From: an uncultured virus (IMG/VR IMGVR_UViG_3300023202_000249)
Lineage: Duplodnaviria > Heunggongvirae > Uroviricota > Caudoviricetes
Virus record (IMG/VR): IMGVR_UViG_3300023202_000249
Strand: one strand, 5' to 3'
Length of the DNA stretch: 64,000 nt
Position numbers and translations under genes: made by a program
Part shown: one piece after another, positions 7,461 through 24,875 of the stretch
Layout: the number at the start of each line of letters is the position of its first letter
How positions within the stretch are numbered: position 1 is the first letter of the stretch
The notes under the pieces: generated by a model
Told to the model about the DNA's origin: nothing
The model's input: the letters and a program-made list of their open reading frames with translations, nothing else
Database searches by the model: none

Positions 7461-7466
7461 GATATG

Positions 7467-8528: not shown

Positions 8529-8540
8529 GATTTTCTCCTC

Positions 8541-8874: not shown

Positions 8875-8892
8875 GTCTGTCTCCCTCTGCTC

Positions 8893-9608: not shown

Positions 9609-9650
9609 GGTTTTCTCCTCTCTCTCGCGGACGCGATTCCAAGACGCCGC

Positions 9651-10262: not shown

Positions 10263-10288
10263 GGTTGTCTCCTCTCTCTGGCGCGGGC

Positions 10289-10462: not shown

Positions 10463-10566
10463 GTCTGTCTCCCTTGCGCGCCCCGATTGGGCGCGCTCTC
10501 TCTCAATGCCCCATTTATAAGCGTGGGGCGCGGCTTATCCCTGGACTGTGCGCATACGCTGCGGGA

Positions 10567-10815
10567 TCACAGCGAGCCGGAACTTACGGCCATAGCGTAG
10601 CGCAGTGCTTCCGCAGCCTTCTCACTTTCATTCGCATCCCCATCCCGCTCTATGCGGGCTAGCTCTCCCAGATCGAGTGCTTCCGCCAATTCTTTGGGAG
10701 TGCTTTGGACAACGTCTCCCTCTGAATCCAGAAAAGCCAGCGTGAATGTTTCGCACGTTCGCAGGCAGAGCGTCCTACCGTCTTTCCCGCGCACCTGTGT
10801 TATCTTTATTTTCAT
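10567..10815 (-). CDS. hypothetical protein
   Basis: MKIKITQ start after an A repeat and GGGAG. Confidence 0.7.
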   Translation of the reverse strand: MKIKITQVRGKDGRTLCLRTCETFTLAFLDSEGDVVQSTPKELAEALDLGELARIERDGDANESEKAAEALRYAMAVSSGSL

Positions 10816-10831
10816 GGTTTTCTCCCTCGTT

Positions 10832-10937
10832 TCGTTCGGCGCGGGCTCATTCCCGCGCTCTCTCACTGCCCCGAGCCCCTGCGCGCCGTCACGCGCGCCA
10901 GGGGCTGGAGTCGACCTTGCCGGGGTCAGGCCTCGGC
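10832..10937 (-). repeat. Leader repeat A, third full copy
   Basis: Identical to 8541-8646. Confidence 0.95.
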
Positions 10938-11126
10938 GCCGGCATCCAGCAGGACACATTTTCGATCCTGAAAGTCTGCCGGTATTCCACAGTCCTGGAA
11001 TGCCTCTACGATCTCGCCTTCGGTCCAGGTGCCTCTCTCTCGGGCGGCGGCCAGGATCTCTGAGGCCGAATGCCCGGCCTCAAGGGCCCGGCGGATACTT
11101 CGACCACCTCGTATTTTCAGTTCCAT
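10926..11126 (-). CDS. Hypothetical protein with an ankyrin-gene-like tail
   Basis: Ends LLDAGAEA*, like 8985-9608 (LLDEGAEA*). Confidence 0.7.
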   Translation of the reverse strand: MELKIRGGRSIRRALEAGHSASEILAAARERGTWTEGEIVEAFQDCGIPADFQDRKCVLLDAGAEA

Positions 11127-11156
11127 GGTTTTCTCCCTCTGCTCTTGGCGCCGGGC

Positions 11157-11744
11157 TCATTCCCGCGCTTTCCCTTCGATCGCTCCAAAATCCCACGATG
11201 CAACGCGCATCTTGCGGGCTAACCCATCATCTCCAGCAATGGCGACTAGTTCGCAGCTGGCTGGAGCGATCCAATATTCGGGTCTGGATTGGTTCCCTAC
11301 GCGCGTTCCGGCGTAGCGCGTATTTTTATACAAAAAACTATGGCAATCGTAATCATAGGCGTACTCAGGTACGCCTTTCAGGACAACGGCTAGCTTTTTG
11401 GCGCGCACAAACTGCGCCGCGCCAATATCGGTAGCACAGATGTGGCCACCGATGTCCATGAAATCATCACGCCAGCCATCATTCAGCACATGTACATAAT
11501 ATCCCACCTCCTTCGGAGCGCGGATACGCGCTCCGCGCATGGCATATTCATCGTACAAAGCGTAAAAATAAAACTCGTCTCCATCGTCATCTTCAATGCA
11601 TATTATTTCAGTACTATACTCGCTTTCATCCGCGCATGGCATAACGTACAGCAACGGGTGCCGTTCCGCCGCTTGGATTACGTACTTCAGCATCCCGGCT
11701 GAAGCTTTCGCGCGAATATATTTTGCTACGTTTTCAATATTCAT
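11157..11744 (-). CDS. hypothetical protein, first gene of the leftward operon
   Basis: Follows the promoter and an A hairpin; ends GKARE* in the next A hairpin. Confidence 0.8.
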   Translation of the reverse strand: MNIENVAKYIRAKASAGMLKYVIQAAERHPLLYVMPCADESEYSTEIICIEDDDGDEFYFYALYDEYAMRGARIRAPKEVGYYVHVLNDGWRDDFMDIGGHICATDIGAAQFVRAKKLAVVLKGVPEYAYDYDCHSFLYKNTRYAGTRVGNQSRPEYWIAPASCELVAIAGDDGLARKMRVASWDFGAIEGKARE

Positions 11745-11812
11745 GGTTTTTTCTCACTCGTTTCGTTCGGCGCGGGCTCATTCCCGCGCTCTCTCTCTAA
11801 CCTTCTTAATCC

Positions 11813-11841: not shown

Positions 11842-12032
11842 TTCAGAAAATGACCATTTTCTGAAATATCTTATAAACCCTTGCCATATAAGGGTTTATA
11901 AGAATGAAGTTTTTATGGCTTCTCATAACTCATCTGCCTGAAAGGGTTTACAAGAATGGCCCATCGGCCCTCGCCTAGGATCTACAGTATAAAATAGGTA
12001 GCCTGGAATAGGTAGCCTAAAAATAGGTAGCC
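11842..12032. promoter_or_regulatory. Two palindromes plus three AATAGGTAGCC direct repeats (operator/iteron-like)
   Basis: ttcagaaaat..attttctgaa; tcttataaaccctt..aagggtttataaga; repeats at 11993, 12007 and 12022. Confidence 0.55.
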
Positions 12033-12506
12033 CGGCGTGGTTTCACCCTCCGTATCACAGCAAATATAATCCGATAGAAAGGTCATGGGGCATCTTAGAG
12101 CAACACTGGGGCGGCGAACTCCTAGATTCAATCGAAAAGACTCTCGGACTGGCCAGAAGCATGACCTATCGCCAAATGCACCCCATTGTCCGATTGGTAA
12201 GAAAGGTCTACAAAAAAGGGGTCCGTGTTGGAAAATCAACAATGAGGAAAATAGAGGAGGCCATTCAAAGAGATCCCAAACTGCCACGATGGTCCATCAC
12301 CATTCCGCCATATACATAAAAAGGAATCTGGGATTTTTGGCAGTCGCCCTCGCTAGAAAACCTCCCGACAGTACAGAACGTCAAATCCATGGCCAGGTGC
12401 GTACTGGGCGCACGCACCTATTTCGTGCTTGACCGCTGCGCTACCTGCTGTAGATTCATACGAGGAGCGGCGCTGGGCGCCGGAAGTGCTGGACCAGGAG
12501 GAATAA

Positions 12507-12664
12507 AGATCAGGGGGGTTCGGGCGTTGGTGCCCGTTCCAGCCTGTTAGCGCAGGAAGGGGCAGTGGCCAATGTCGGCAGTGGCAGTCGCGAATGCCAA
12601 CCGGCAGACCACGAAACGGTGAAAGGCCGTTCCTCGAGGGTTCGATTCCCTCCCCCCCTGATCT
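12507..12664 (+). ncRNA. tRNA-like RNA with an extended acceptor stem and a large internal domain
   Basis: 12-bp stem agatcagggggg/cccccctgatct; D-like arm cgggc-gttggt-gcccg; T arm gaggg-TTCGATT-ccctc. Confidence 0.65.
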
Positions 12665-12895
12665 CAGTAGACTACTGCGGAGCGGAGCATCGGCATGGGT
12701 AAACGTAGTCTGGCTAACGTCCAAGGTCACCGGGCCGCGGCCGATGACCTCGACCTCAATTAAACGCGCCGACCGCGGCTCCGGTGCACCGTTTTGTTCA
12801 CCCATTCTTCGGAGTCTCCCATGTTGTTTCAAGAATCACTATCAATCGCGGACGGTGTACATCGCTGGTGTGCGGCCGCATCCACTGCGGGAGCA

Positions 12896-13297
12896 ATGTT
12901 GCCTGCTTACGTCCAGGATTTTATTCAGCGTCTCGATTGGGACGCGGAAGGCGATGAGCGTGTCGATATGTACGACATCGTCGAGGCCGTCACGGATGCG
13001 TGCCGTGAATGCCAAGAGCAGCACGTCGATGATTGCGATGGGACGTATTTTCCGTGTCCTCGTGGGGTCAGCGTTCATTGCAGCCCGAACGGAGGCGTGG
13101 ACATCGTGTGGGATAGCGATTCCCACAACACAGTGTTGCGATTCGTTGCCGAGTCCCGTGACCGAGCGACGATGGTGGGCGGATTCGCGAATCACGGCAG
13201 CGGTCTGCGTCGGGATTACGTTGTTTTGCTGTGCGAGACAGAGCATGAGGATTCCGACCGGCTCCGCGCGTGCCGTGGCGAGTTGGTATCGGGGTGA
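12896..13297 (+). CDS. hypothetical protein (start uncertain)
   Basis: Part of ORF 12794-13297; GGGAG before ATG 12896. Confidence 0.5.
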   Translation: MLPAYVQDFIQRLDWDAEGDERVDMYDIVEAVTDACRECQEQHVDDCDGTYFPCPRGVSVHCSPNGGVDIVWDSDSHNTVLRFVAESRDRATMVGGFANHGSGLRRDYVVLLCETEHEDSDRLRACRGELVSG

Positions 13298-13299
13298 AC

Positions 13300-13626
13300 A
13301 TGAGAATATACGAACTTCGCGTTGACGGCGTGGACTGCTACTACTCCCTCGGCCTGTCCGCGTCCTTAGAGGCCCTCAAGCAACAAGTTGAGGCAATGGA
13401 CGGCCCGGCGCATGAATACGCACACGGAACAGAGCAGCTGGAAATCTACGCGCGAGAATTAGGAGAGCTGCAGAGCGATTGCGCTGCCCCCGGCGTGCTA
13501 GTCTGCTCTGCCAAACGCTATTCGTATGTGTCGGATGATGACAAACTCAAATGGCGCACTGAGTGGGCGGCTGATGCGGATAACGCCCAAGTTGAGTTTC
13601 AAGAAGGGAGCGAAAACAAGAAATAG
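13300..13626 (+). CDS. hypothetical protein, duplicated in inverted form at 17400-17673
   Basis: MRIYELRVD...KLKWR occurs twice. Confidence 0.75.
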   Translation: MRIYELRVDGVDCYYSLGLSASLEALKQQVEAMDGPAHEYAHGTEQLEIYARELGELQSDCAAPGVLVCSAKRYSYVSDDDKLKWRTEWAADADNAQVEFQEGSENKK

Positions 13627-13655
13627 CTGAAAAAACTTCCTACGGGGTGAGAACA

Positions 13656-13922
13656 ATGATTCAGAGAAAAGTAACCCTGCATGTAGAGCCGACGCCGCAA
13701 GAGTTGGCTTTTGAATTCTCCCAGATGAGCGACAAGAATCAAGCCGTATTCTTCAATGAGTTGGCGCGTCTGGTGGCCGAATGGGAAAAGCCGTTTTGCT
13801 TTCAGTTGCAATACATAACGGATCACCCGGCATTGACCAGTGAAGGCCGCGAAGTGATGCGCCAGATTGGCGAGTACGGCGAAGTGATCTCGCCCAACGC
13901 AGAAAGTGAGGTTTCGGAATGA
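13656..13922 (+). CDS. hypothetical phage protein
   Basis: Ends inside the attC-like site with an ATGA overlap. Confidence 0.75.
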   Translation: MIQRKVTLHVEPTPQELAFEFSQMSDKNQAVFFNELARLVAEWEKPFCFQLQYITDHPALTSEGREVMRQIGEYGEVISPNAESEVSE

Positions 13923-13958
13923 CAGAGCGAAGGCGTTGCCTCCCTCGCCTTGTTCTGT
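13892..13958 (-). other. attC-like site
   Basis: Minus strand ACAGAAC aaggcg...GTTGGGC; imperfect palindrome. Confidence 0.65.
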
Positions 13959-14236
13959 GGACTTGGCAGGGTTGCGGGTATCTGGAGGGCTACGGCTACC
14001 ATCCCGGCTCGGGAAGCATGGCGTTTCTAATCGCCCTTGGTGCCGCTGCTGGCGCGGATGGAGGATGGGCTGGGTCGCTCTTTGGAGCAGGCGCAATGGC
14101 TACAACCTTCGGCTCTCTCTACCTCGTCGGAGCTTACTGTAGAGCGAAGGATTTTCATTCACATAACGACCAAGGTAACCGGGTGCCGGAGAAAGACTAT
14201 GGATTCAGAAACGACGCCGACCGGCACTCCGGTTGA
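13919..14236 (+). CDS. small membrane protein in a cassette
   Basis: Two hydrophobic segments; starts and ends within attC-like sites. Confidence 0.6.
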   Translation: MTERRRCLPRLVLWTWQGCGYLEGYGYHPGSGSMAFLIALGAAAGADGGWAGSLFGAGAMATTFGSLYLVGAYCRAKDFHSHNDQGNRVPEKDYGFRNDADRHSG

Positions 14237-14250
14237 CCGCCTTGTTCGCC
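14161..14250 (-). other. attC-like site
   Basis: Minus strand GGCGAAC aaggcggtCaaccggAgtgccgg...ccggcacccggttaccttggtc GTTATGT. Confidence 0.8.
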
Positions 14251-14654
14251 AGTTTCAGTGCCCGGGGTGCGTCTGCGGGGGAGACACTGACTGCGGCGTT
14301 TACACGTACGACCAGAACGAGCGCCGATGCGTAAGTCATGTTCTTGGGACGATGATCGGGCTGGGCAATTCGATTGCCCTCGGATTACCGAAGGGCTTCC
14401 ACAAGCCAGGTTGGGACAAGGAACGCAAGCGGGCACGCAACAGGATTGACGTGCGGCTGTGGCCGCAGGGCGATCATCCAGAGTGGGACCGCCTGAACGT
14501 CGCTGTGTGGGCGATGGAGCAAGACGGCCACTTGTTCGTTCGCACATTTGCGCCCCGTGTAAACGTGTCGTGGGTGGACGTGATAGAAGGAGGAACGCTT
14601 GCGATGGTTCCAGATGCGATCAACGTGGCCGAGTTTATTGACGAGATTGATTGA
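14199..14654 (+). CDS. Cys-containing hypothetical protein in a cassette
   Basis: GGAG and ATG lie in the attC loop; FQCPGCVCG motif. Confidence 0.75.
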   Translation: MDSETTPTGTPVDRLVRQFQCPGCVCGGDTDCGVYTYDQNERRCVSHVLGTMIGLGNSIALGLPKGFHKPGWDKERKRARNRIDVRLWPQGDHPEWDRLNVAVWAMEQDGHLFVRTFAPRVNVSWVDVIEGGTLAMVPDAINVAEFIDEID

Positions 14655-14657
14655 CCT

Positions 14658-14716
14658 GGCGAACGTTTCGGGTGAGAGTCGCGGTACTCCGCGTACTCTC
14701 GACCCGGTTGTTGGCA
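14658..14716 (-). other. attC-like site (59 bp)
   Basis: Minus strand TGCCAAC aaccgggtCgagagtAcgcgg-agta-ccgcgactctcacccgaaac GTTCGCC, with the two classic extrahelical positions. Confidence 0.85.
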
Positions 14717-14735
14717 GTTCTTTGGAGGACACGGA

Positions 14736-15491
14736 ATGAAGATCGCATACGAAAACGAGAACGTCCAGTTGTGGCACGGCGACTGCCGGGAGTGGTCCGG
14801 TAAGGCCGATGCCGTGCTGACTGATCCGCCATACGGCATTGAAGGCGCACGCGGCACGATCAACCGGGCCCGCAACAAGGGCGGATATGGTGAAGAATGG
14901 CAAGACACGCCGGATTATGTGGCCGACGTGTGCGCCGCCACGGTGCGCCGACTGATTGAGGCATGCGAGGCTGTGGTGTTGACGCCAGGCATCAAAAACA
15001 TGATGTGGTATCCGCAACCGGACAGCTTCGGATGTTTCTACCAACCGGCAGCGGTTGGATTGCAGTCGTTCGGGAACATGGACGCACAACCGATCTTTTA
15101 CTATGGCCGCAACTTGACCGGAAAGAACATGGGGAAGCGATGCAGTTTCACGTTGACCGAGGCACCGGAGAAGAACGGGCACCCGTGCGTCAAGCCGTTG
15201 CAAGCGTGGAAGGTGTTGCTGTGCCAGTTCACGAACGAGGGCGACACCGTGCTGTGCCAGTTCACGAACGAGGGCGACACCGTGCTGTGCCAGTTCACGA
15301 ACGAGGGCGACACCGTGCTTGACCCGTTCTGCGGGAGCGGCACGACGCTGATCGCCGCGCTGGAGACCGGGCGCAAGGCCATCGGCATCGAGATTGACGA
15401 GCGGTGGGTTGACGTAGCGGTGAAACGCCTTGAGCGGTGGCACGCGCAAGGGCGGTTCGACTTTGGTACTGCCAACGAAGAATTATCATAA
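14736..15491 (+). CDS. DNA N6-adenine/N4-cytosine methyltransferase (beta class)
   Basis: TDPPY, HPCVKP, VLDPFCGSGTT, GIEI. Confidence 0.95.
   Translation: MKIAYENENVQLWHGDCREWSGKADAVLTDPPYGIEGARGTINRARNKGGYGEEWQDTPDYVADVCAATVRRLIEACEAVVLTPGIKNMMWYPQPDSFGCFYQPAAVGLQSFGNMDAQPIFYYGRNLTGKNMGKRCSFTLTEAPEKNGHPCVKPLQAWKVLLCQFTNEGDTVLCQFTNEGDTVLCQFTNEGDTVLDPFCGSGTTLIAALETGRKAIGIEIDERWVDVAVKRLERWHAQGRFDFGTANEELS
15217..15319. repeat. 33-bp perfect triple tandem repeat inside the methyltransferase gene
   Basis: LCQFTNEGDTV x3. Confidence 0.95.
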
Positions 15492-15670
15492 TCATCAAGC
15501 AGGGTGATCGACGCTGAGCATTTTATAGACAATCACTCTCGTAAAATAAAGCAACGCGATAAACATCGCCATGTATTGCCAGCTGAATCCCTGCATCGCC
15601 TCGATACCAACGGCGCCCATGTACACGCCGTTAATAAATAGTACCGCTAAAAGAATCAGTTGCTGAATCA

Positions 15671-16042
15671 CTAACATTGCTGTCCCCTCCACTCGGTGTA
15701 AGACTGGTATTGCTGCCACAGCGAATACCACTGGGCGTCCATGTACTGTCGCCAATGGCCCGGGAATGCCTTGGCGACTTCCATGTCATCTGCGAGTGCA
15801 AGCTTGTCCATCGGGACGATCTTGTTGATCTCCTTGGCTACCGCTCGGGCTGTATCGTGGCCGCGTACCACGCCAACGGTTTTCTTGGTTGGAATATGCA
15901 GAATGCATGCGTCTTCGTCGCGGTCCTTGTCGTGCCACCAGGTCAACACGGCGAGAAAGAAGCCGACGTTGCGGCCAATGCCGATCGGTGTGTAAGGCGG
16001 CTCGTCCGATCCAAGCGCGACACTCATCTCGTAAACAGTCAT
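15671..16042 (-). CDS. hypothetical protein
   Basis: GGAG RBS; operon context. Confidence 0.7.
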   Translation of the reverse strand: MTVYEMSVALGSDEPPYTPIGIGRNVGFFLAVLTWWHDKDRDEDACILHIPTKKTVGVVRGHDTARAVAKEINKIVPMDKLALADDMEVAKAFPGHWRQYMDAQWYSLWQQYQSYTEWRGQQC

Positions 16043-16092
16043 CTCAATCTCCAGCCTTAAGGGGCACCTATTCTATCGCCAAAGCGGAAAAC

Positions 16093-16485
16093 TCAAAGAT
16101 GTTTTTGAATGCCCCTCAGATAGCAGAACGATTGAGGTGGGCGTGCCACACAAAATGCGGAAAGGCTAAGGGGAGTCGTGTATCGCTTCGGATGCGCCAC
16201 TTCGATCGCGTATCCCACGTCCCGGTTCTTGAAGTATTCGTCAAAGAAATCCCGCGCTACGCAAGCTCCGTCTCGGGTCCGTTCCCATAGATCGTCTGGG
16301 TGTGCCTCGATGATGCCCTTGACCTCGACCTCCCCTACGACGCGCTTGACCGGGCTCGATGCATAAATTACGACGCGGGTCACACTTCTGTCTCGGAAAA
16401 TCTTGCGTCGCAGCTCGAATCGCTTCTCGCCATCGAGAATTGCTTCGGCATACTCGGGCTTGATGGACAATAAAACGCGGGCCAT
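16093..16485 (-). CDS. ASCH/PUA-domain protein
   Basis: LLSIKPEYAEAILDGEKRFELRR, IYASSP and PPQSFCY are typical of ASCH proteins. Confidence 0.9.
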   Translation of the reverse strand: MARVLLSIKPEYAEAILDGEKRFELRRKIFRDRSVTRVVIYASSPVKRVVGEVEVKGIIEAHPDDLWERTRDGACVARDFFDEYFKNRDVGYAIEVAHPKRYTTPLSLSAFCVARPPQSFCYLRGIQKHL

Positions 16486-16646
16486 GTGCTATCTCCCCTT
16501 CGGCGGGCTTGGACTATGAGATCCGGGGCGCGACTTCCCAAGAGCAACCCTTGCCGAACTCTGCATCTGCGCTTTTCGTAAGTCCTTTCTGCTCATATTT
16601 CTACATCCTGTTTTCTGTTAACCAAATGCCCCTGTTAACCCGTGGG

Positions 16647-17033
16647 TCAAGAGTTCGCAGATTCAAATTTCTCCATAAATTGGCATTTCATTTTTGGGTG
16701 CGCCAGGATGAAGTCCAAAAGACACACTAATTTGCAACGGTAGCCAACTCCTTCTCCTTGGCCTAAGCATGCGTTTGGACCCATGCGGCCACCGTTATCT
16801 TTCCACTTCCAGCCATTAGAGGTACGAAACACCTCACCCAAATAGGTACGCCCGTTTTCTGCAACTTCTGGCGAACGCTTACGATAAATCTTGTGTGTCG
16901 CGCCGCGCTGCACTGAAAGCCACCAATTGCGACCCTCAAGAGCTTTCTTGCGTTCATTCCAACTCATACGCGCAAAGTATCCACGCAACCACAATTCTGG
17001 GCATCGCATTCTATGACTGTTAACCATTTTCAT
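16647..17033 (-). CDS. hypothetical protein
   Basis: ORF with a purine-rich RBS. Confidence 0.6.
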   Translation of the reverse strand: MKMVNSHRMRCPELWLRGYFARMSWNERKKALEGRNWWLSVQRGATHKIYRKRSPEVAENGRTYLGEVFRTSNGWKWKDNGGRMGPNACLGQGEGVGYRCKLVCLLDFILAHPKMKCQFMEKFESANS

Positions 17034-17084
17034 GTTTCTTTCCCCTTCCCGAAGTCGGCGACATTGGTATCCCAGACGACGCGC

Positions 17085-17333
17085 TCAACTTCCGGCATCG
17101 CGGATCTCCTCGATCGCCTCTTCGGCGGGCAGACCATCCGTTAAATCCATTATTCCGCGCCGCTGCGCCTCCTTCAGTCGCTCGAGAAATTCATCGCCCT
17201 GGGGCGTCGGACGTGCAACGGCCCTTTCCGCTTCTCGAACGCACGCATGGCACGCCGACTGATCGCCAGCGTAAAACGCCATGAGTTTGTACGGCTTCCC
17301 ACAAATCGGGCACTTCACAGTTTTATCCAACAT
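17085..17333 (-). CDS. small Zn-finger-like protein
   Basis: CPIC...CHAC. Confidence 0.65.
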   Translation of the reverse strand: MLDKTVKCPICGKPYKLMAFYAGDQSACHACVREAERAVARPTPQGDEFLERLKEAQRRGIMDLTDGLPAEEAIEEIRDAGS

Positions 17334-18264
17334 GATTGATACTCCAACCGCCGCCTAACAAATCGGTCAACGGGAGCGGCGGTATCCCCGTTACCTTACT
17401 GCGCCATTTGAGTTTGTCATCATCCGACACATACGAATAGCGTTTGGCAGAGCAGACTAGCACGCCGGGGACAGCGCAATCGCTCTGCAGCTCTCCTAAT
17501 TCTCGCGCGTAGATTTCCAGCTGCTCTGTTCCGTGTGCGTATTCATGCACTGGGCCACCGTCGGGTCCGTCCATTGCCTCAACTTGTTGCTTGAGCGCAT
17601 CTAAGGACGCTGACAGGCCGAGGGAGTAGTAGCAGTCCACGGCGTCAACGCGAAGTTCGTATATTCTCATGTTGTGCTTACTGCATTTGCGCGCCAGTTC
17701 CACCAGCCATCGGGCGAACCCCGGCGGGGTGGCCTCGCGCTCCCATTGCGGAACCCGCGACTTGAATCGCGGATGCCCAATCCGCACGCCATGCCCTTGC
17801 GAAATGCAGTGCGTCGGCTCGCCTTCTCTGTGCGGCATTGCCGGCACGTCCACTGGCTCGCATCCGACCACGTAGAGCCGCGTCGGTTTTTTGGCCCGGT
17901 GTCCCCAATGGAATTGATCCACCGTCAGGAGAAATCCAACGTCGCCAGCGGCACCACACCCGCAGTGCTCAAACAACGCGCTACCCTTTGGGTGTTCCAG
18001 CACGCCACCGCATCGCCTCACCTGCTTCACCGCCCACGGACCAAGGGCATGTTCTTCCGGCCGCTTGGGTATTTGGTGACGAAAGTTTCCCCACGTCCGA
18101 CACGGTGGATGTGCAATCACCGGCCCCGTGCCAGCAAACGTCCGCGCATCCCGCCAGCGGTCGTAACAGTCAAGCCCCATCGCCTTGTAGATGCTCTGCT
18201 CTCGAACAAACAGCACAACAAGACGGTCGAGCGTACTGCCAATTCCGCTTCGCTCCATTGTCAT
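17323..18264 (-). CDS. C5-cytosine methyltransferase-like domain fused to a copy of the 13300 gene
   Basis: IAHPPC, VLEHP, GHRAKKPTRLY and REATPPGFARWL, followed by MRIYELRV... Confidence 0.7.
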   Translation of the reverse strand: MTMERSGIGSTLDRLVVLFVREQSIYKAMGLDCYDRWRDARTFAGTGPVIAHPPCRTWGNFRHQIPKRPEEHALGPWAVKQVRRCGGVLEHPKGSALFEHCGCGAAGDVGFLLTVDQFHWGHRAKKPTRLYVVGCEPVDVPAMPHREGEPTHCISQGHGVRIGHPRFKSRVPQWEREATPPGFARWLVELARKCSKHNMRIYELRVDAVDCYYSLGLSASLDALKQQVEAMDGPDGGPVHEYAHGTEQLEIYARELGELQSDCAVPGVLVCSAKRYSYVSDDDKLKWRSKVTGIPPLPLTDLLGGGWSINHVG

Positions 18265-18285
18265 CCGCTCACCTCATCGTTGGGC
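18213..18285 (+). other. attC-like site
   Basis: GCACAAC aagacggtCgagcgtA...cgcttcgct...cgctcacctcatc GTTGGGC. Confidence 0.85.
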
Positions 18286-18554
18286 AGCTCAATGCAGGCA
18301 CCGACAGCATCGCCGCCAGGGGTGGGGAAGGTAGAGCCTGTGCACCACTTCCAGCCGTGCGCGACCCTAATCCAGTATCCACCCATAATGGCGTGCGCCT
18401 TGGTCCCGATAGGGTATTCGCTCCAGGGGCGATCTACGGGCACGCGCACGCCGAACATGCGGGTGAGCGCCCAGCCCCCTTGCGGAACCGGCAAGCCGAG
18501 GGCCTTGCGTGCGTCCGCTGCCTGTTGTTCTTTAGCTTCAATGTGGTCGTACAT
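18261..18554 (-). CDS. hypothetical protein in a cassette
   Basis: GGAGG RBS; bounded by matched cores at 18279-85 and 18578-84. Confidence 0.75.
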   Translation of the reverse strand: MYDHIEAKEQQAADARKALGLPVPQGGWALTRMFGVRVPVDRPWSEYPIGTKAHAIMGGYWIRVAHGWKWCTGSTFPTPGGDAVGACIELPNDEVSG

Positions 18555-18577
18555 TTTTCCTCCGGTTGAAAGTTGCT

Positions 18578-18714
18578 GCCCAACAAGGGCAATTCAGCGG
18601 ACGCTACCGCGCCGCAGAGTCCGCGTTCATCGGAAAGGATGATGCGCGGCATGCTGATTCGTTTGGCATCACTTTTTCCTTTGGCCCATCGGGCCGGTTA
18701 TCGGCAGCGTTCGC
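18578..18714 (+). other. attC-like site (right boundary uncertain)
   Basis: GCCCAAC aagggcaattcagcggacgctaccgcgccgc; candidate ends GTTTGGC at 18661 or GTTCGCC at 18708. Confidence 0.55.
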
Positions 18715-19098
18715 CATATACACAGTCCCACCACCTTTGCGTATCAGCGCGTAGAATCGTTCCATCGTTGTCCCCGCCGGTATTACGACGGGCTTCCCGG
18801 GGCTGTATCGACTTGTCCGCAACCACGCGACAGCCCCGGCATTAATCTGTTCCACACTCCACGGGCTATTGCAATGCCCGAAGGATGGCGTCTCGAAGTC
18901 GCCGTCCCACGCGACCTTGATAATCTCAAACTTTTCGTGCTTGCAAGGACCGTATGGCGTTCCCGCGTTGTGTTCATACGGTGCATCGTCAAAATCATCT
19001 CCCCATGCATCTTCCAGCGCCTGCGTCGTAAAGTAGGCCCACGGCCCGTCTACATAACACAAAACGGGGTTGTCTTTATTTGGTGCAGTCATATTCAT
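18604..19098 (-). CDS. hypothetical phage protein
   Basis: GAGGAGG RBS; LCYVDGPWAYFT, WGDDFDDAPYEHNAG, NSPWSVEQIN. Confidence 0.75.
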   Translation of the reverse strand: MNMTAPNKDNPVLCYVDGPWAYFTTQALEDAWGDDFDDAPYEHNAGTPYGPCKHEKFEIIKVAWDGDFETPSFGHCNSPWSVEQINAGAVAWLRTSRYSPGKPVVIPAGTTMERFYALIRKGGGTVYMANAADNRPDGPKEKVMPNESACRASSFPMNADSAAR

Positions 19099-19104
19099 CC
19101 TCCT

Positions 19105-19275
19105 CAATAGCTCTCGCTGTGTTCTGCTCGATGACAAATGGCACACAGCAAGTCGCATTTGTCCAATTCAACGCGGCATTTTCCCATGCGTAGTTTTTAC
19201 TTGTTGGCAAAAACAACTTGGTTGCTGGGTCTCTGTGGTGAAAGTCAAAAGCAAAGGCGTTACTCCCGGTGTACG
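19105..19275 (-). pseudogene. HNH endonuclease fragment, frameshifted
   Basis: FDFHHRDPATK in one frame and ELDKCDLLCAICHRAEH in another. Confidence 0.6.
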
Positions 19276-19279
19276 CGTA

Positions 19280-20155
19280 TCAGGCGAAAAGTAATTGCTG
19301 CTCGATACGTTTACGAGCGATTTCGCAATACTCTTCATTTATCTCGATTCCGAGAAACTTGCGGCCAAGCTCTCTGGCCATCTTTGTCGTCGTTCCGCTG
19401 CCGTTGAATGGATCTAAGACTATGTCTCCGGGGTTGCTCCAAGACAAGATATGATCGCGGGCTAGTGCCTCGGGGAATATGGCGGGATGCTTGTGTGCTA
19501 TGGTATCTGTTGACGAGTGCCTGAAGCCTGCTTCATATTCCCACACATTTCCCCTTGCTCCCATTTCAGGAGCTATTCGACCAAAGCTATGGCTTTTTTT
19601 CATGCTCCCGTCTTTGCATCGCAGGGTGGGTGAATACTTTTTCCCTGCGTATGAATTCGGCTTATCCCTCAAAAGGTGAAGCGTCTTTGGCCTGCCTCTG
19701 GAAAACACAAACATATATTCGTGCACTTGCGGATAAACGCGATGCCCGTGACGTGGAAATTCACCCTTTTTTCGGTAAATCATCGTATCAAGCAACTTCA
19801 TCCCGCCGTCGACAAATGCAATGGCTTGCTTGAATGAAGTCAGGCTTTCGCAGTGGTCCCTACTTGTGTCTGACACTACCCAAACAATAATTGCTCCATC
19901 CTTTATAATGCGGCACAAATTCCTGCGCACCGAATCGAAGTCAAAGACAAATCCTCCGTATTCTCTGGCGTCGTCGTATGGTGGCGAGGTAACTACAAGA
20001 TCGATGCACTCGCGAGGCAGTTGGCCCATTACGTCACAGTTGTCACCGCATACGATCTTGTCGCCTGACAACAAGTCATTGCAGCGAACACTATCAGCCG
20101 TTCCGCTTGGAGCGTCGGTCGTGTCAGCCTGGGTTTTAGTTTGTTCGTCGTTCAT
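19280..20155 (-). CDS. DNA N4-cytosine/N6-adenine methyltransferase (beta class)
   Basis: VTSPPY, HPAIFP, LDPFNGSGTT. Confidence 0.95.
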   Translation of the reverse strand: MNDEQTKTQADTTDAPSGTADSVRCNDLLSGDKIVCGDNCDVMGQLPRECIDLVVTSPPYDDAREYGGFVFDFDSVRRNLCRIIKDGAIIVWVVSDTSRDHCESLTSFKQAIAFVDGGMKLLDTMIYRKKGEFPRHGHRVYPQVHEYMFVFSRGRPKTLHLLRDKPNSYAGKKYSPTLRCKDGSMKKSHSFGRIAPEMGARGNVWEYEAGFRHSSTDTIAHKHPAIFPEALARDHILSWSNPGDIVLDPFNGSGTTTKMARELGRKFLGIEINEEYCEIARKRIEQQLLFA

Positions 20156-20166
20156 CGTGTTAGTCG
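20066..20166 (+). other. attC-like site containing the methyltransferase start codon (right end uncertain)
   Basis: TGACAAC aagtcattgcagcgaac...GTTAGTC. Confidence 0.5.
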
Positions 20167-20211
20167 CTCTATTTCTCTATGCCAACGCTCGTTCCCACAC
20201 TGGCCTACAGT

Positions 20212-20514
20212 TCATCTCGCTGGCACCAAACGCAACCCAGAACCTTTGCACGACCAGCAAACAACGTCGCATTCTTCTATGTAGTCGTAGAGATTTTTTT
20301 TCCCATCACAGATTCGACATGCATCCCTAGCTCGGCACGTCCAACACTCATAGTACTGTCGCGGATCTATTTGGTCTCCCATGTCCTCGGTCATTAGCCC
20401 GCATTTGCTCGTCGCGTGGCCTTCCTCGAAACCGTGAGCAATGCCATTGGGGTGGCACCGCCAGATAACAATCGGTTGCACGGGCTCCGTGGACGACGTG
20501 TTTTCTGTACTCAT
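20212..20514 (-). CDS. Cys-rich hypothetical protein
   Basis: Three CxxC pairs; start lies inside an attC-like site (AGATAAC at 20463). Confidence 0.65.
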   Translation of the reverse strand: MSTENTSSTEPVQPIVIWRCHPNGIAHGFEEGHATSKCGLMTEDMGDQIDPRQYYECWTCRARDACRICDGKKNLYDYIEECDVVCWSCKGSGLRLVPAR

Positions 20515-20582
20515 GGTCTTTCACTCCCCAGAAGGTGGCGCTGGTTCATAGTTGGCGGCGAAGAACTCGGCCGCAACATACA

Positions 20583-20993
20583 TTACTCCTCCACGCGCTC
20601 TCCGGACTTTATAATGTACCATCCGCCGATATTGAGCCGGTCGATTTCTCCGTCTAGCCGGCGCACCTTAACGACCTTCTCTTCGGCGACGAACGGCGTC
20701 CGTAGTCCGCGAGCAACCGCGATGTCCGGACGGATGACGTTGTAGCCTTCGAGGTCACGCTCCTCGGTGCGGTGGTCGAGGTCGCCATCAACCTTGACCG
20801 CGATCAGCACCTTGACGTCATCAAGAACCTTCGCGACCTCGACCACGCGCTGGCGCTTCGTCGTCTGCTCTACCAACGTGATCCGATCCTTCACCTTCGG
20901 TCCGATCGTCACGCACGCCGTCAAGGCCACCAAGAGCGTCATTGAGATCGCTGCGGCTATCGATCTCAGGGTCTTTATCTCTCCTCCCGACAT
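20583..20993 (-). CDS. putative lipoprotein
   Basis: Signal peptide with LTAC lipobox; GGAGG RBS. Confidence 0.65.
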   Translation of the reverse strand: MSGGEIKTLRSIAAAISMTLLVALTACVTIGPKVKDRITLVEQTTKRQRVVEVAKVLDDVKVLIAVKVDGDLDHRTEERDLEGYNVIRPDIAVARGLRTPFVAEEKVVKVRRLDGEIDRLNIGGWYIIKSGERVEE

Positions 20994-21087
20994 GATTCAC
21001 CTCCGTGGTTGCTGGATTGTCCATCCCAAGTAGCTTCTTCAAGCCGGTGATGATCACACCGACGATTCCCGCGATCGCGCTCCACAT
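20821..21087 (-). CDS. Small N-anchored membrane protein overlapping the lipoprotein gene
   Basis: MWSAIAGIVGVIITGLKK; GGAG RBS. Confidence 0.5.
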   Translation of the reverse strand: MWSAIAGIVGVIITGLKKLLGMDNPATTEVNHVGRRDKDPEIDSRSDLNDALGGLDGVRDDRTEGEGSDHVGRADDEAPARGRGREGS

Positions 21088-21258
21088 GCTTCTTACTCCC
21101 GATACAGGCTGACAATCTAAGCGCGGACCCTCACCGAAGCGGCCTATTTGCCCCGCGGGTCCTCGATCAGTAAATGTAACAAGCGCGACATCCACCCAGC
21201 ACAGTGCCAACAGCATCCAAGAAAGAACGGTGAATGCCGCGCTCGAACTCGAATGATC

Positions 21259-21750
21259 TTACGCACTCGGCGTCGTCGATTCATCCTTCGCGGTAAACGG
21301 ATGATCTCCACGCATGGCCTTTAGGATGTCCGGGACGCCTTCCAGGGCAACGGACGCCAGCTCGACGCCTTCTTCGGCTTGGATGTCCTTCACCTCGCTG
21401 GGCACCTTCGATATTCCGTCTGCCGCCGCTTGAATTTTGGCCTTCACCTCCGGGTTCCCGGAGATGTCAGCCCAGACGTTCATGGCGTCCTTGCCGGCTT
21501 GAAGTCCATCGTGTAGGTGGAACAGAATGATCGCCGTCAGCGCATTGGCGCCGATGAGCGCTTCCTTGGTTTCCTTGATGCCGTGTTCTCCAGCCATTAC
21601 CTCGATCCTCCTTGCAAGGCCCTCAATCTGTTGTTGACGCGCCTTCCAGGGCCACATCCAGCGCGCCAGTGTGAACAACTTGCTCGCGATCCACAGCGCC
21701 AATGCAGGGCGCTTTCGTATCAACTTCCAGACCAATCGCAGCGCGAACAT
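21259..21750 (-). CDS. hypothetical protein (possible internal start at MAGEHG)
   Basis: ORF; GAGG before the internal ATG. Confidence 0.65.
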   Translation of the reverse strand: MFALRLVWKLIRKRPALALWIASKLFTLARWMWPWKARQQQIEGLARRIEVMAGEHGIKETKEALIGANALTAIILFHLHDGLQAGKDAMNVWADISGNPEVKAKIQAAADGISKVPSEVKDIQAEEGVELASVALEGVPDILKAMRGDHPFTAKDESTTPSA

Positions 21751-21826
21751 GACTTCGATTCTACCAGATATCAGAGGGACGGAACAGACATCTCGAATCG
21801 CATTGCAGATAACAAGCGCATGATCT

Positions 21827-22381
21827 TCATGCTCCCATCCTCCTTCTTAGTTTTTCTCTCCAACGCTCAAGCGTAGCGCACAGCGCGCTACAGCACTCCT
21901 TCCAAAATGATTTAGGCGTGAACGCGAGTCTGAAATAAAACGGCTTCTGTCGCCATGCATGTACGAGCATGACCTCGCCAGCGCTTGTATATATCAGCGC
22001 GCCTTTTTCGCAAAGATCGTGCATGGCGCACAGCAGGGCGTACTTGTATTTCTGGCGTTCTGCTGGCCTGTTTGAATGTACGGCATACTTGAGCCTCAGG
22101 CATTGATCGATCAGGCCCGCAGAGTCGCAGTACTCCATCCGATCGCAGTACTCCATCTGATAAAGCTCCCCTAAGATATCCATCTTCGCTGAGAAGACTG
22201 TATCTCGGAAGCAGACAGCCTTGGGCTCCGGATTGCATTGTGGGAGAAATGGGCCAACCAAACGTGGCGATCGACAGGCCAGCGTGGACTGCGTATCGAT
22301 TAATGGACTCTCTTCTGCGATCATTCCCAGATGTATGAGTTGCTGTTTACTGAGGCTCATGTCAAGCGGATGATTACTCAT
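21827..22381 (-). CDS. hypothetical protein
   Basis: GGAGGAGG RBS; ATGA coupling. Confidence 0.65.
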   Translation of the reverse strand: MSNHPLDMSLSKQQLIHLGMIAEESPLIDTQSTLACRSPRLVGPFLPQCNPEPKAVCFRDTVFSAKMDILGELYQMEYCDRMEYCDSAGLIDQCLRLKYAVHSNRPAERQKYKYALLCAMHDLCEKGALIYTSAGEVMLVHAWRQKPFYFRLAFTPKSFWKECCSALCATLERWREKLRRRMGA

Positions 22382-23558: not shown

Positions 23559-24875
23559 TTAAAGGTTTTCCTTGACTACTTGAGCGGTGAGCTTGAGCGT
23601 CTGCAGCGGCCAGCGCGCGACGATGCTCTGTTTTAGTTGTTCATGCTCTTCGACTTCGAATGCCTCGCGAAATGCTGAGATGGTGTCGTCCGGTATGTTT
23701 TGCAGAATCATCCACACCGCATCGGCCGCCTCGGACTGTGACAGCTCATCGCTCTCGATCTTTTCAATGAGACTTACTACGTCAACGTCAGAGCTTTTGC
23801 TGATCTTCTTCTCCGTCTTCTTTTGCGGCTTCTCGGGCGCGTCGTCCGGAGGCGTTGGCACTTCGTCGGGATCGGGCGCCTTAGTCTTACCAGCTTTCTT
23901 CTTCTTATTCTTGGAACCCTTCGGTCGCCCGCGCTTTTTCTTCTTGGGCGGATCAGGATCCTCTTTCTGATCGTCTTCCTCTTTCTGATCGTCTTCCTCT
24001 TTCTGATCGTCTTCTTCTTTCTGATCGTCTTCTTCTTTCTGATCGTCTTCTTCTTCGATAGGCGCATTCTCTTCAAGGTCTAGGACCTGCTCCTCTTCGT
24101 CGTGCGGTTCGGGCGTCTCGTCCTCCGGATGCGCTGCCGCGGTATGGGGAAGCGCGTGCTCGTCTTCCTCAAGCACCTCGCCGGTCTCGGGGTCAACCAG
24201 GTCATCTTCTATGACGCGCCCTTCGACTTCGCTCGGAATCGTGGATATCTCGCTTACATCACCGTCCAGGAGGCCTTTCACGCCCGTCAACGTCTCGTAA
24301 AGCCACTTGGACGCCTTTCTCTCGGCCTTACCGACGCCGGCCTCATCGGGCGACTTGTCATGCAGCCGGACGCGGCATTCGATGGTCTCTGTGCGCGTCT
24401 TCTTCTCGCCCTCCAGCTGGAATTTAACTTCCATATTGATGATCGCATACCCGCGCTTATCGCGGCGGGGATGATCAACGGTGCGTAGCGCCCAGTGCTT
24501 CAGCTTGCGGCAGTTCTTGTCAAGCAAATGCCGAAAACCCTCTCGTGTGATGTAGCAGTTCCCGCCAATTACGTTGAACTGATTGCCCACTGGCAGCACG
24601 CCGGTAAGCAATGCCTCAAGTAATGCGTCGACAAGGACCGCTCGAGGATACCCTGGATTGTCGACCTTGAAGCCTAAACGGCTCCCCCTCAAGCTGAGCA
24701 GGCTATCGATATGCTTGCTCGACTCGATCATTTTCCGGAGCTTATACATACTTTGCCCGGCGGCCATCATGGCCATGAAGGGATTGTCGGCGGTTTCGGC
24801 TTTACAGAATGCCTGAAAAGCCTTGACCCGGACATCGTTCAGATCGGTACAAAATTGTGCCAATTCGTTAGACAT
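23559..24875 (-). CDS. Putative ssDNA-annealing (RecT/Redbeta-like) protein with an acidic repeat tail
   Basis: GVLPVGNQFNVIGGNCYITREGF core; VDPETGEV motif; near a PD-(D/E)XK nuclease; 18-bp EEDDQK x5 repeat at 23960-24056. Confidence 0.55.
   Translation of the reverse strand: MSNELAQFCTDLNDVRVKAFQAFCKAETADNPFMAMMAAGQSMYKLRKMIESSKHIDSLLSLRGSRLGFKVDNPGYPRAVLVDALLEALLTGVLPVGNQFNVIGGNCYITREGFRHLLDKNCRKLKHWALRTVDHPRRDKRGYAIINMEVKFQLEGEKKTRTETIECRVRLHDKSPDEAGVGKAERKASKWLYETLTGVKGLLDGDVSEISTIPSEVEGRVIEDDLVDPETGEVLEEDEHALPHTAAAHPEDETPEPHDEEEQVLDLEENAPIEEEDDQKEEDDQKEEDDQKEEDDQKEEDDQKEDPDPPKKKKRGRPKGSKNKKKKAGKTKAPDPDEVPTPPDDAPEKPQKKTEKKISKSSDVDVVSLIEKIESDELSQSEAADAVWMILQNIPDDTISAFREAFEVEEHEQLKQSIVARWPLQTLKLTAQVVKENL

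Follow-up and report, generated by a model that had tools for sequence, protein, structure and literature searches.

The window, by which we mean the whole 64,000-nt stretch analysed, comes from a tailed phage, and among its accessory genes integron gene cassettes probably form two short clusters that point in opposite directions and have no integrase close by (a CALIN). The cassette genes run antisense to the attC sites. Viral contigs that encode the integron integrase IntI share this reversed build, and for this reason we think it likely that the window derives from, or is a client of, a phage-type integron, lacks the integrase and has partly decayed.

Identification of attC sites

Sites were located with covariance models, all of them home-made and giving rough E-values. 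At E<=1e-4, R1 found attC in 65 of 80 intI loci (15 short loci were left out), 90 sites in all and every one on the expected array strand. R2 was built from 90 genuine attC sites adjoining intI genes and R3 from the 15 attC of intI-bearing viral contigs. When R2 was applied to phage TJE1 it recovered three attC in canonical sense orientation, the number given in the text describing that CALIN. Run on the window with filters off, R2 produced six matches at E<=0.1; R3 (E<=5) returned the same six and none extra:

5830-5889, + strand: attC; cores R'' GCCCAAC, R' GTTAGCT; R2 37.1 bits, E 3.3e-7; R1 34.6 bits; R3 29.2 bits
12712-12802, - strand: attC; cores R'' GGTGAAC (12802-12796), R' GTTAGCC; exact partner core at 13293; R2 31.8 bits, E 7.8e-6; R1 27.1 bits; R3 16.4 bits, E 0.12
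14161-14250, - strand: attC; cores R'' GGCGAAC, R' GTTATGT; exact partner core at 14658; R2 27.2 bits, E 1.3e-4; R3 23.0 bits
14658-14716, - strand: attC; cores R'' TGCCAAC, R' GTTCGCC; exact partner core at 15470; R2 19.3 bits, E 0.014; R3 21.4 bits, E 0.0063
17353-17400, + strand: truncated attC (R2 match 17353-17413); R2 16.4 bits, E 0.081; R3 16.7 bits, E 0.11
18213-18285, + strand: attC; cores R'' GCACAAC, R' GTTGGGC; R2 40.4 bits, E 4.6e-8; R1 38.6 bits; R3 39.2 bits

Judged by their sequence, these are integron-type attC. In the R2 alignments, five of the six have the extra C that follows base 3 of the L'' stem. The best-scoring site is 18213-18285, and 5830-5889 stands alone, outside both clusters. 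The gene-sense strand of 14658-14716 has a DNA fold energy of -19.6 kcal/mol. The truncated site at 17353 keeps the R'' core (GCCTAAC in the model alignment) and the L''/L' stem without the R' core; alignment of a duplicated gene described below, U2, places the beginning of U2 copy 2 at the position expected for that core.

An earlier note on this DNA had listed nine places with attC-like palindromes. Four of these (18213-18285, 5830-5889, 14161-14250 and 14658-14716) coincided with R2 matches to the base, and the one at 17353 survived as a half site. The remaining four, 13892-13958 and those beginning at 18578, 20066 and 20463, gave no match with R2 at E<=10 or R3 at E<=5, and we do not retain them as attC. 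At 13892-13958 a hairpin (13922-13958; DNA fold energy -10.4 kcal/mol) is flanked by AAC and GTT cores and may be a decayed site. The attC at 12712-12802 was absent from that list.

Complementary cores at cassette ends

All the 7-mers quoted in the earlier note were found where it had placed them when the sequence was read directly. Exact pairs are GTTCGCC 14244/GGCGAAC 14658, GTTGGCA 14710/TGCCAAC 15470, GTTGTGC 17671/GCACAAC 18213, GTTGGGC 18279/GCCCAAC 18578 and GTTAGCT 5883/AGCTAAC 5984; GTTCTGT 13952/ACATAAC 14161 pair with one mismatch. Such pairs are by themselves no evidence, because 67 GTTNNNN/NNNNAAC pairs 150-1500 nt apart occur in the window and 64 +/- 9 were obtained in 200 second-order Markov simulations of it. 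The model-positive sites were more informative: four of the six have an exact partner core belonging to their own cassette, 408-754 nt off, against a background of 90 in 1569 seven-mers (5.7%; binomial P ~1.3e-4). The proposal that cassettes here have complementary cores at both ends is thus upheld at these four sites. Three of the partners are R' cores standing alone:

13293-13299, - strand: orphan R' core GTTCACC; exact reverse complement of the R'' core of attC 12712-12802, 491 nt off
15470-15476, - strand: orphan R' core GTTGGCA; pairs exactly with the R'' core of attC 14658-14716
17671-17677, + strand: orphan R' core GTTGTGC; pairs exactly with R'' GCACAAC at 18213

The first marks the start of the cassette ending in attC 12712-12802 and has no hairpin beside it. 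At the second a methyltransferase cassette begins and the left array has its origin end; neither a hairpin nor an attI-like motif was found there, and the adjacent 70 nt fold with only -2.6 to -3.2 kcal/mol. The third is the start of a cassette carrying a gene of the phrog_12600 family. For attC 5830-5889 no exact partner core was present within 3 kb upstream, and AGCTAAC 5984 lies merely 95 nt downstream.

Genes of the region and their orientation

The genes in and between the two arrays are as follows:

12794-13297, + strand (uncertain): candidate cassette ORF, 167 aa; stop TGA within the core GGTGAAC 13293-13299
13300-13626, + strand: gene U2, copy 1
14199-14654, + strand: cassette ORF, 151 aa; codon score +0.21 (antisense ORF -0.25)
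14736-15491, + strand: cassette ORF, DNA methyltransferase (N6_N4_Mtase); PF01555 E 5.5e-22, phrog_67 E 1.9e-40
15495-15680, 15671-16042, 16093-16485, 16647-17033 and 17085-17333, - strand: five small genes between the arrays
17323-18264, - strand: fused reading frame, 313 aa; two genes joined without a stop at GCACAAC|ATG
18261-18554, - strand: ORF, 97 aa, between GTTGGGC 18279 and GCCCAAC 18578; codon score +0.24
19280-20155, - strand: second DNA methyltransferase; PF01555 E 2.5e-44

The cargo had been described as phage-like, and Pfam and PHROG searches agreed, identifying two N6_N4 DNA methyltransferases, phrog_12600 and phrog_3136. The latter matched gene 16093-16485 together with PF04266, an ASCH domain. 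ORFs between the arrays are 61-130 aa long and matched no recombinase family in Pfam or PHROG; nor did R2 or R3 match any attC at E<1 in 15495-17333. No Pfam or PHROG family was found for ORF 14199-14654. ORF 12794-13297 had no Pfam family at E<=0.001 and one chance-level match at E<=1, and its strand is ambiguous: its codon score is +0.11, and that of ORF 12842-13246 on the - strand is +0.09.

The first methyltransferase contains an in-frame tandem repeat of 33 nt x 3 at 15217-15329 (repeat family D14). The second is flanked by GTTGGCA 19203 and TGCCAAC 20180, a pair of cores that also encloses the first, with no attC detected by R2 or R3 in 19203-20186; the two enzymes are similar over one 51-aa stretch only. 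The ORF at 18261-18554 looks like a cassette with a decayed attC.

The fused frame comprises the phrog_12600-family cassette gene (18264-17671) and U2 copy 2 (17670-17323). Its phrog_12600 match (E 3.1e-55) covers residues 15-200 only, and homologues in loci L004 and L006 stop near the U2 fusion point. U2 belongs to an inverted duplication, 13297-13563 being 93% identical to 17395-17673, with the shared part of both copies opening at AAC|ATG. The inverted repeats of the duplicate show 97% (I1) and 95% (I2) complementarity, and one of its boundaries falls at no recognisable site.

All cassette ORFs had been claimed to run antisense to the sites, and this was true of all six model matches. Gene strands were fixed by Pfam and PHROG for both methyltransferases and phrog_12600, codon scores favour the antisense ORFs, and in both arrays the cassette ORFs are co-directional with local phage transcription. 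The gene closest to the solitary attC 5830-5889 (5527-5805; codon score +0.15 bits/codon) starts at ATG 5805 with a ribosome-binding site and lies on the - strand, so it too is antisense. Within attC 14161-14250 the upstream gene reaches its stop codon and the downstream gene has its ATG (14199), and attC 18213-18285 contains the position (18264) at which the phrog_12600 gene starts. The same orientation was seen elsewhere: around the phrog_12600-family gene in L004-L006 all 14 R2 matches (E<=1) were antisense to the gene, as were 29 of 29 matches (E<=0.05) in metagenome loci carrying this family, where sites were present in 17 of 79 loci.

If the cassettes recombined at their cores, homologous genes elsewhere should break there. 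In blastn comparisons the phrog_12600 cassette was 82% and 80% identical to L104 and L105 from 18259 to exactly 17671, and in alignment A6 all five contexts diverge directly past GCACAAC. For this cassette gene, breakage of homologues at the core is thus found in five contexts.

Viral contigs encoding IntI

In the window no tyrosine recombinase was detected, in agreement with the earlier note as far as this was tested, and the phage attI-like motif had no match. Twelve viral contigs (L090-L101) encode IntI proteins, all above the TIGR02249 cut-off, and attC were detected in nine of them. All 15 of these attC are located upstream of intI and on the strand opposite to it, which is the canonical geometry, and 11 have exact partner cores. 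The cassette ORFs, often DNA methyltransferases, are antisense to attC, and share one direction with intI and the downstream phage genes; on the intI strand, 18 of 49 ORFs had PHROG matches, compared with 2 of 49 on the other. Next to intI are genes for terminase, portal or GemA.

These contigs thus resemble the window in antisense ORFs, methyltransferase cargo and complementary cassette ends, and the phrog_12600 family is common to both (50% amino-acid identity). They differ in possessing intI and, upstream of this gene, an attI-like motif that is conserved, both lacking in the window, and in their phage backbones. The phrog_12600 gene is the only window cassette with relatives in intI-bearing contigs; the methyltransferases match at the family level only.

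Comparison with known systems

The sites of the window follow the same plan as those of the class 1 integron of plasmid R46 and of chromosomal integrons adjoining IntI relatives: a 7-nt R'', a spacer of about 5 nt, an L'' stem with one extra base, a variable loop, an L' stem, a 5-6-nt spacer and the R' core. Shared, too, is the complementarity between an R'' core and the opening bases of the cassette to which it belongs. In R46, cassette genes and attC occupy one strand and diverge from intI1, whereas the window yielded neither intI nor attI, has its ORFs reversed and shows several junctions that consist of a core alone, with no hairpin. T4-type phages have promoter stem-loop (PeSL) mobile cassettes, in which small accessory genes lie between repeated stem-loops, the proposed agents of their shuffling. 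These elements are promoter-plus-hairpin units and not attC; the window differs from them in that attC models recognise its sites and cassettes homologous to its own adjoin IntI.

Altered mutual orientation, with intI co-directional with the cassette genes, is described in the text of PMC4889954 for "inverted integron-integrase" integrons of Treponema and others. The phage contigs, in contrast, keep intI opposite to attC, and it is the ORF within the cassette that is turned. Also comparable to the window are the CALINs of tailed phages described by Qi et al. 2023 (PMC9892861), which likewise are attC clusters without intI and carry DNA methyltransferases, N6_N4_Mtase among them. That text includes one phage with divergent attC directions and reports that IntI1 recombined five of six phage attC sites tested. 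In TJE1, the published example checked, attC and ORFs have the same sense, whereas every attC of the window is antisense and overlaps gene starts or stops.

Alternative explanations

Under a first alternative, the phage passively acquired part of a bacterial chromosomal integron through illegitimate or homologous recombination, and no phage-specific pool exists. Such a route was put forward by Qi et al. for certain phage CALINs (PMC9892861); it would suit the lack of intI and attI in the window and the patchy regional GC (48-62%). Such a fragment is, however, predicted to show canonical sense orientation, as R46 and TJE1 do. Here the ORFs of both arrays follow local phage transcription, the cargo falls in PHROG families and the reversed build also adjoins intI in contigs bearing terminase and portal genes. 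We consider this origin unlikely.

That the hairpins are mimics of attC, serving another phage recombinase or nuclease, might be suggested by the lack of an IntI in view and by the small ORFs of unassigned function at 15.5-17.3 kb. Yet those ORFs are the ones of 61-130 aa without a recombinase family match, models built only from intI-adjacent attC give 19-40 bits on one strand only, and a homologous cassette lies in an array adjoining a bona fide IntI, which makes mimicry very improbable. The third reading, in which they are ordinary intergenic terminators or regulatory stem-loops with coincidental core matches, is disfavoured, and we give it hardly any credence. It could draw on the view that attC are weak terminators (discussed in PMC9892861) and on the chance-level frequency of GTT/AAC 7-mer pairs across the window; against it, none of the six model-positive sites was among the eight terminator-like sites at 12-21 kb (shuffles 9.1 +/- 3.2), no Rfam family was matched in 12600-18400 at E<=1, and neither the core pairing at four of six sites vs the 5.7% background nor the breakpoints at the core in 5/5 contexts would be accounted for.

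Proposed origin and movement of the cassettes

On the reading of the window as an integrase-less derivative or client of a phage-type integron, the cassettes would have entered and moved via IntI-catalysed exchange at G|TT, with IntI supplied in trans from an unseen part of the same genome, a co-infecting phage or the host. Relative to a bacterial cassette, each is inside out: its attC hairpin stands, in gene sense, upstream of the ORF, carrying or directly preceding the ribosome-binding site and start codon, and the ORF closes at or near the terminal core. The gene-sense strand thus corresponds to the bottom strand of attC, the one that folds and that IntI cuts. The reversed build may make the cassettes readable within a phage operon.

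The earlier note had envisaged a virus-specific cassette pool shuffled by a host-supplied or distantly encoded IntI. A virus-associated pool of reversed cassettes fits what was found in other viral contigs; for shuffling of the window array, contigs of four runs from one study contained no rearranged joints. Related viral contigs encode their own IntI, an observation that bears on the idea of a host-supplied enzyme. The array may be a fossil, because the R' core of one attC is missing, two genes have been fused into one ORF across a junction and one U2 boundary coincides with no recognisable site.

Integrase-less attC clusters on phages are not new, having been published by Qi et al. 2023 (PMC9892861). 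The reversed orientation of the cassette genes appears to be new relative to the main text of that paper, in which the words "antisense", "opposite" and "reverse" do not occur. Since this layout is also present in IntI-encoding phages, it suggests that the gene-capture system of bacteria has a phage version. It is not universal in phage CALINs, TJE1 being canonical.

Results

The 64-kb window encodes a helicase, a primase, a PD-(D/E)XK exonuclease, an HNH endonuclease, a tail-fibre protein and an ankyrin-repeat protein, and its region 13000-21000 is 100% identical to a 49-kb IMG/VR record, G001. The gene content and this identity therefore assign the window to a tailed-phage genome. Between about 12.1 and 15.49 kb the genes are on the + strand; from 15.495 kb to past 26 kb they are on the - strand, and the convergent blocks meet at 15491/15495. 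No match was obtained when 12000-22000 was compared by megablast with 50,697 phage records. Relatives that would allow cassette gain and loss to be compared in a shared frame were sought among viral contigs for the proteins 23559-24875, 25212-26162 and 13300-13626, and none was found; metagenome contigs gave no relative for the protein 20583-20993.

attC models and attC sites in the window

Rfam detected only a tRNA in the whole window at the gathering score and nothing in 12600-18400 at E<=1. Because the sites matched no Rfam family, an attC covariance model was made here. The attC of plasmid R46 were read, and the R46 IntI1 was used as a query to collect 80 genome loci with intI1 or its relatives (68-100% identity). 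A fold-based screen of these loci produced 117 candidate sites, of which 19 clear top-strand sites were picked by hand and aligned to give model R1. With 15 short loci of the 80 left out, R1 found 90 sites at E<=1e-4 in the other 65, and all 90 had the strand orientation expected of a cassette array. Model R2 was built from these 90 sites and run with filters off; a further model, R3, was built from the attC of intI-bearing viral contigs alone. As an outside control, R2 found three attC on Tetrasphaera phage TJE1, all in the same sense as orf1-3; this phage carries a published CALIN (attC cluster without an integron integrase), for which three attC are reported in the legend of figure 2 (PMC9892861). 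Polaribacter phage P12002L, which the same paper names, gave a single weak match (30005-30059, +, 13.8 bits, E 0.29), placed between two - strand methyltransferases; its score is too low to weigh for or against. A first motif, GACCGNNTTGTT, had 9 matches with at most one mismatch against 3.8 +/- 2.0 expected; it was dropped in favour of the models because it had been derived from the sites themselves.

attC sites in the window. Scores and E-values are those of R2, a home-made model (not the IntegronFinder model) with shortened calibration and hand-picked seed sites.
18213-18285, + strand: 40.4 bits, E 4.6e-8; coordinates identical to those of the earlier note
5830-5889, + strand: 37.1 bits, E 3.3e-7; coordinates identical to those of the earlier note
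12712-12802, - strand: 31.8 bits, E 7.8e-6; new, absent from the earlier note
14161-14250, - strand: 27.2 bits, E 1.3e-4; coordinates identical to those of the earlier note
14658-14716, - strand: 19.3 bits, E 0.014; coordinates identical to those of the earlier note
17353-17413, + strand: 16.4 bits, E 0.081; without R' core

The seventh-best R2 match in the window had E 0.78, and R3 found the same six sites and none besides. Of the nine attC-like places listed in the earlier note, four were thus recovered to the base, whereas 13892-13958 and those beginning at 18578, 20066 and 20463 were unmatched by R2 and were not rescued by R3. The alignments revealed the canonical attC plan on the top strand: a 7-nt R'', a 5-nt spacer, L'' with one extra base, a loop, L', a 5-6-nt spacer and R'. 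Both cores are present in five of the six sites (17353 lacks R'), and an extra C follows the third L'' base in five of six; the strict R/Y core pattern is broken in some, for example in GGTGAAC. Assignment to attC is based on a covariance-model score on one strand only, which all six sites have. A CALIN is defined by at least two attC of the same strand, spaced by less than 4 kb and with no intI nearby (PMC4889954). The sites 12712-12802, 14161-14250 and 14658-14716 on the - strand and 17353 and 18213-18285 on the + strand are arranged in this way.

Arrays in the window, read along the attC top strand.
Left array (top strand -): bare core 15476-15470, methyltransferase cassette, attC 14716-14658
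Left array, next: cassette with ORF 14199-14654, attC 14250-14161
Left array, next: stretch with three small ORFs and a weak hairpin only (13892-13958)
Left array, end: gene U2, bare core 13299-13293, one cassette, attC 12802-12712
Right array (top strand +): truncated attC 17353-17400, second copy of U2, bare core 17671
Right array, next: phrog_12600 cassette, attC 18213-18285
Right array, end: matching cores without detectable hairpins, 18279/18578 and 19203/20180

Orientation of the cassette genes

Family matches are firm for the methyltransferases 14736-15491 (+) and 19280-20155 (-) and for the phrog_12600 gene (-), and codon-usage scores of the remaining ORFs prefer that same strand, 12794-13297 being the one ambiguous exception. 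The adjacent ORFs are antisense to attC at all six model-positive sites, in agreement with what had been noticed from the sequence alone. The canonical cassette form, in which ORF and attC top strand share one sense and attC lies downstream of the ORF, was not found in the window. Read in the sense of the gene, the window cassettes consist of attC, a ribosome-binding site and the ORF. The start codons ATG 14199 and ATG 18264 fall within their own attC, and the ORFs stop at or near the terminal core, as with TGA 13295-13297 in GGTGAAC. A Pfam search at E<=1 with 13 cassette proteins gave chance-level matches only.

Cassette ends

The earlier note had quoted 7-mer cores that pair as reverse complements, one pair with a mismatch, and all of these are present where it placed them. 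Across the window, GTTNNNN/NNNNAAC pairs 150-1500 nt apart numbered 67, against 64 +/- 9 in second-order Markov simulations, and there was no window-wide enrichment. As such pairs are no commoner than simulated, a test independent of the original choice of sites was needed. Chains of pairs numbered 15, against 5.4 +/- 2.8 simulated (maximum 16), a count left unused because it includes redundant chains. When only the model-positive sites were considered, an exact reverse complement of R'' was found at the start of the site's own cassette for four of the six (13293, 14658, 15470 and 17671), 408-754 nt away. As background, 90 of 1569 NNNNAAC words (5.7%) have a partner 150-1000 nt upstream, giving a binomial P of ~1.3e-4. 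A partner core at the cassette start is the trace of a once-circular form, and cassettes bearing this trace are present in the window. Around each of the two methyltransferase genes the flanking cores are GTTGGCA and TGCCAAC (14710/15470 and 19203/20180); the two proteins share a 51-aa stretch only.

If the units are cassettes, their homologues should break at the cores, a test that the earlier note had named and whose outcome is positive here. Blastn of the phrog_12600-family gene (17671-18264) against two metagenome loci, L104 (82%) and L105 (80%), gave alignments running from 18259 to exactly 17671. The window, L104, L105 and two more loci with relatives of this gene (L106 and L004) share sequence up to GCACAAC and diverge directly after it (5/5), a result that covers one cassette, that of the phrog_12600 family; for the other window cassettes no traceable relatives were found.

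Relatives encoding an integron integrase

A homologue of the phrog_12600 gene, 50% identical to that of the window, is present on the viral contig L006, flanked by attC 120-178 and 751-807. Two more attC lie at 1161-1216 and 1564-1622, and all attC matches on this contig are antisense to the ORFs. Adjoining the array is a gene for a 333-aa protein that matches the integron integrase family TIGR02249 with 288 bits (cut-off 265) and is 37% identical to IntI1 over the full length; a GemA-like gene comes after it. Used as a query, this IntI led to 12 viral contigs, whose 12 IntI proteins all passed TIGR02249 (271-327 bits). At E<=0.1 R2 found 15 attC in nine of the 12. All are upstream of the intI 5' end with their strand opposite to that of intI, as is usual for the geometry of intI and attC. 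Exact partner cores within the same cassette were found for 11 of these 15 attC, including cores ~90 nt upstream of intI next to a shared attI-like motif.

Among ORFs of at least 75 aa upstream of intI in eight loci, PHROG matches were obtained for 18 of 49 on the + (intI) strand and for 2 of 49 on the - strand. The PHROG-positive ORFs immediately adjacent to an attC number nine; all are on the intI strand, and four of them are DNA methyltransferases; ORF strands in these and other loci come from PHROG matches and ORF geometry rather than gene annotation, and the viral contigs are predictions from metagenomes. The neighbours of intI are terminase, portal, primase or transposase genes. In 79 metagenome loci of the phrog_12600 family R2 found 29 attC at E<=0.05 in 17 loci, and all 29 are antisense to the gene.

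A conserved attI-like motif, TTAGAnAGCC ... TAAT ... AT|GTT, is present ~90 nt upstream of the phage intI (L090/L006, ~1897-1990), with equivalents in L091, L093, L094, L097 and L100. Its GTT core is complementary, as an exact partner, to the R'' of the first cassette's attC in four of the six loci (L090, L091, L097 and L100).

Integrase and attI in the window

No tblastn match below E 1 was obtained in the window for IntI1 or the L006 IntI, and PF00589 had 0 matches in G001, which corresponds to ~324-49776. A Pfam scan took in 78 of the 95 ORFs of at least 140 aa and showed no recombinase among them; three more were scanned too, the remaining 14 being overlapping ORFs. Within this scope the observation that no tyrosine recombinase is in view still stands. 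The attI-like motif of the intI-bearing viral loci had 0 matches in the window, other attI types being unrecognisable by sequence alone. Thus, of the two components of a complete integron, intI beside the array and attI at its origin, these searches found neither. Assembled contigs from four runs of one study with this stretch contained no joints, and thus no trace of ongoing movement, although contigs cannot show rare excised or rearranged forms; the contigs break at the U2 duplicate and at a 33-nt repeat.

Discussion

Integrons are bacterial gene-capture devices. The substrate of IntI is the bottom strand of attC in its folded form, and strand exchange takes place between A and C of the bottom-strand AAC core, corresponding to G/TT on the top strand; exchange at attC releases or inserts circular cassettes. 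In the window cassettes the bottom strand is the gene-sense strand. In the phage contigs with intI, reversed cassettes would allow a single direction for intI, cassettes and late genes. The intI-attI-attC geometry would be kept as the reaction requires, at the price of an ORF reversed inside each cassette. The window cassettes have the reversed build and, because they have no enzyme in view, any movement would need IntI supplied in trans.

The arrays might represent passive capture of a bacterial array, but this does not explain a uniform reversed build that follows phage transcription in both arrays. The attC-like hairpins could alternatively be transcription terminators; against this, none of the six sites was among the terminator-like sites in a test for a G+C-rich hairpin with a T run. 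Model scores, the statistics of the cores and the positions of the breakpoints together rule out chance. Recognition by another, unknown recombinase is an unnecessary assumption, since the homologues are linked to IntI.

Overall, a cassette design reversed so as to fit one-directional phage transcription is suggested by the window together with its relatives, a design linked to phage-encoded integron integrases and loaded with DNA methyltransferases. We consider it somewhat more probable than its opposite that tailed phages own a distinct form of integron in which the following features are combined. The intI gene may belong to a phage operon in which packaging or replication genes come directly after it; attC may be canonical towards intI, with every cassette reversed (attC, ribosome-binding site, ORF). 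As the cassettes are all reversed, the whole bank may be transcribed with the phage, and DNA methyltransferases and other anti-restriction functions may be abundant in its cargo. The window itself would belong to this form without an integrase and draw on the same cassette pool. If this is so, the arrays would form a counter-defence gene bank, the mirror of bacterial chromosomal integrons that store anti-phage defence genes, and the same enzyme family by which bacteria shuffle defence genes would serve phages for counter-defence genes. The reversed design also places attC in the 5' leader of each gene, which bears on how cassettes are created and on their expression without the integron Pc promoter.

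Large chromosomal integron arrays have recently been shown to store anti-phage defence genes, and phage-borne attC clusters have been reported before, as look-alikes of bacterial arrays. In 10,705 phage genomes Qi et al. (2023; PMC9892861) reported three complete integrons, one In0 (an integrase without cassettes) and 17 CALINs. Five methyltransferase cassettes were described in that survey, and five of six phage attC tested recombined with IntI1 (PMC9892861). The words 'antisense', 'opposite' and 'reverse' are absent from its main text, and its supplements may show orientations. In full-text searches, with most subscription journals outside their reach, this was the one paper found on integron parts in phages, and nothing was found on phage-encoded integrons with reversed cassettes.

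State of the arrays and other observations

U2, a gene of 108-115 aa whose family was not recognised and for which no relatives were found in viral contigs, is present as an inverted duplicate (13297-13563 and 17395-17673; 93-97% identity, 12-nt indel). The common sequence begins exactly at AAC/ATG, with a different neighbouring cassette for each copy; the other boundary has no recognisable site. The two copies could drive inversion of the intervening 3.8 kb. The phrog_12600 ORF, whose stop codon is lost, reads through into U2 as a fusion. In the first methyltransferase an in-frame 33-nt unit occurs three times at 15217-15329 (100%, 100% and 91% identity), repeating 11 residues just before the DPFCGSGTT motif. 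Together with the truncated attC and the bare cores, these features suggest that the array is no longer well maintained.

The best sigma-70-like promoter in 12-21 kb, matching 10 of 12 positions, is at 12042-12070 (+). Its position is an AT-rich gap, and the short + strand gene block with the left array lies immediately downstream. The sole tRNA of the window, at 36881-36958 (-; Rfam tRNA, 46.1 bits), was given no type by ARAGORN, which reads a four-base anticodon 'gcta'; if the anticodon is CTA, this may be a tRNA of amber-suppressor type whose anticodon loop is enlarged. A 75-nt repeat family holding CTGATGAG occurs at 2242-2316, 7378-7452 and 29852-29926, the latter two being 87% and 61% identical to copy 2242-2316; for copy 7378-7452, an Rfam scan by E-value gave chance-level matches only. 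Several G+C-rich hairpin repeat families lie in 7300-11800 (for example ~8527-8576, 10818-10867 and 11749-11798), within a block of 64-70% GC that includes the ankyrin-repeat ORF 8985-9608, and adjoin a repeated start region of - strand genes.
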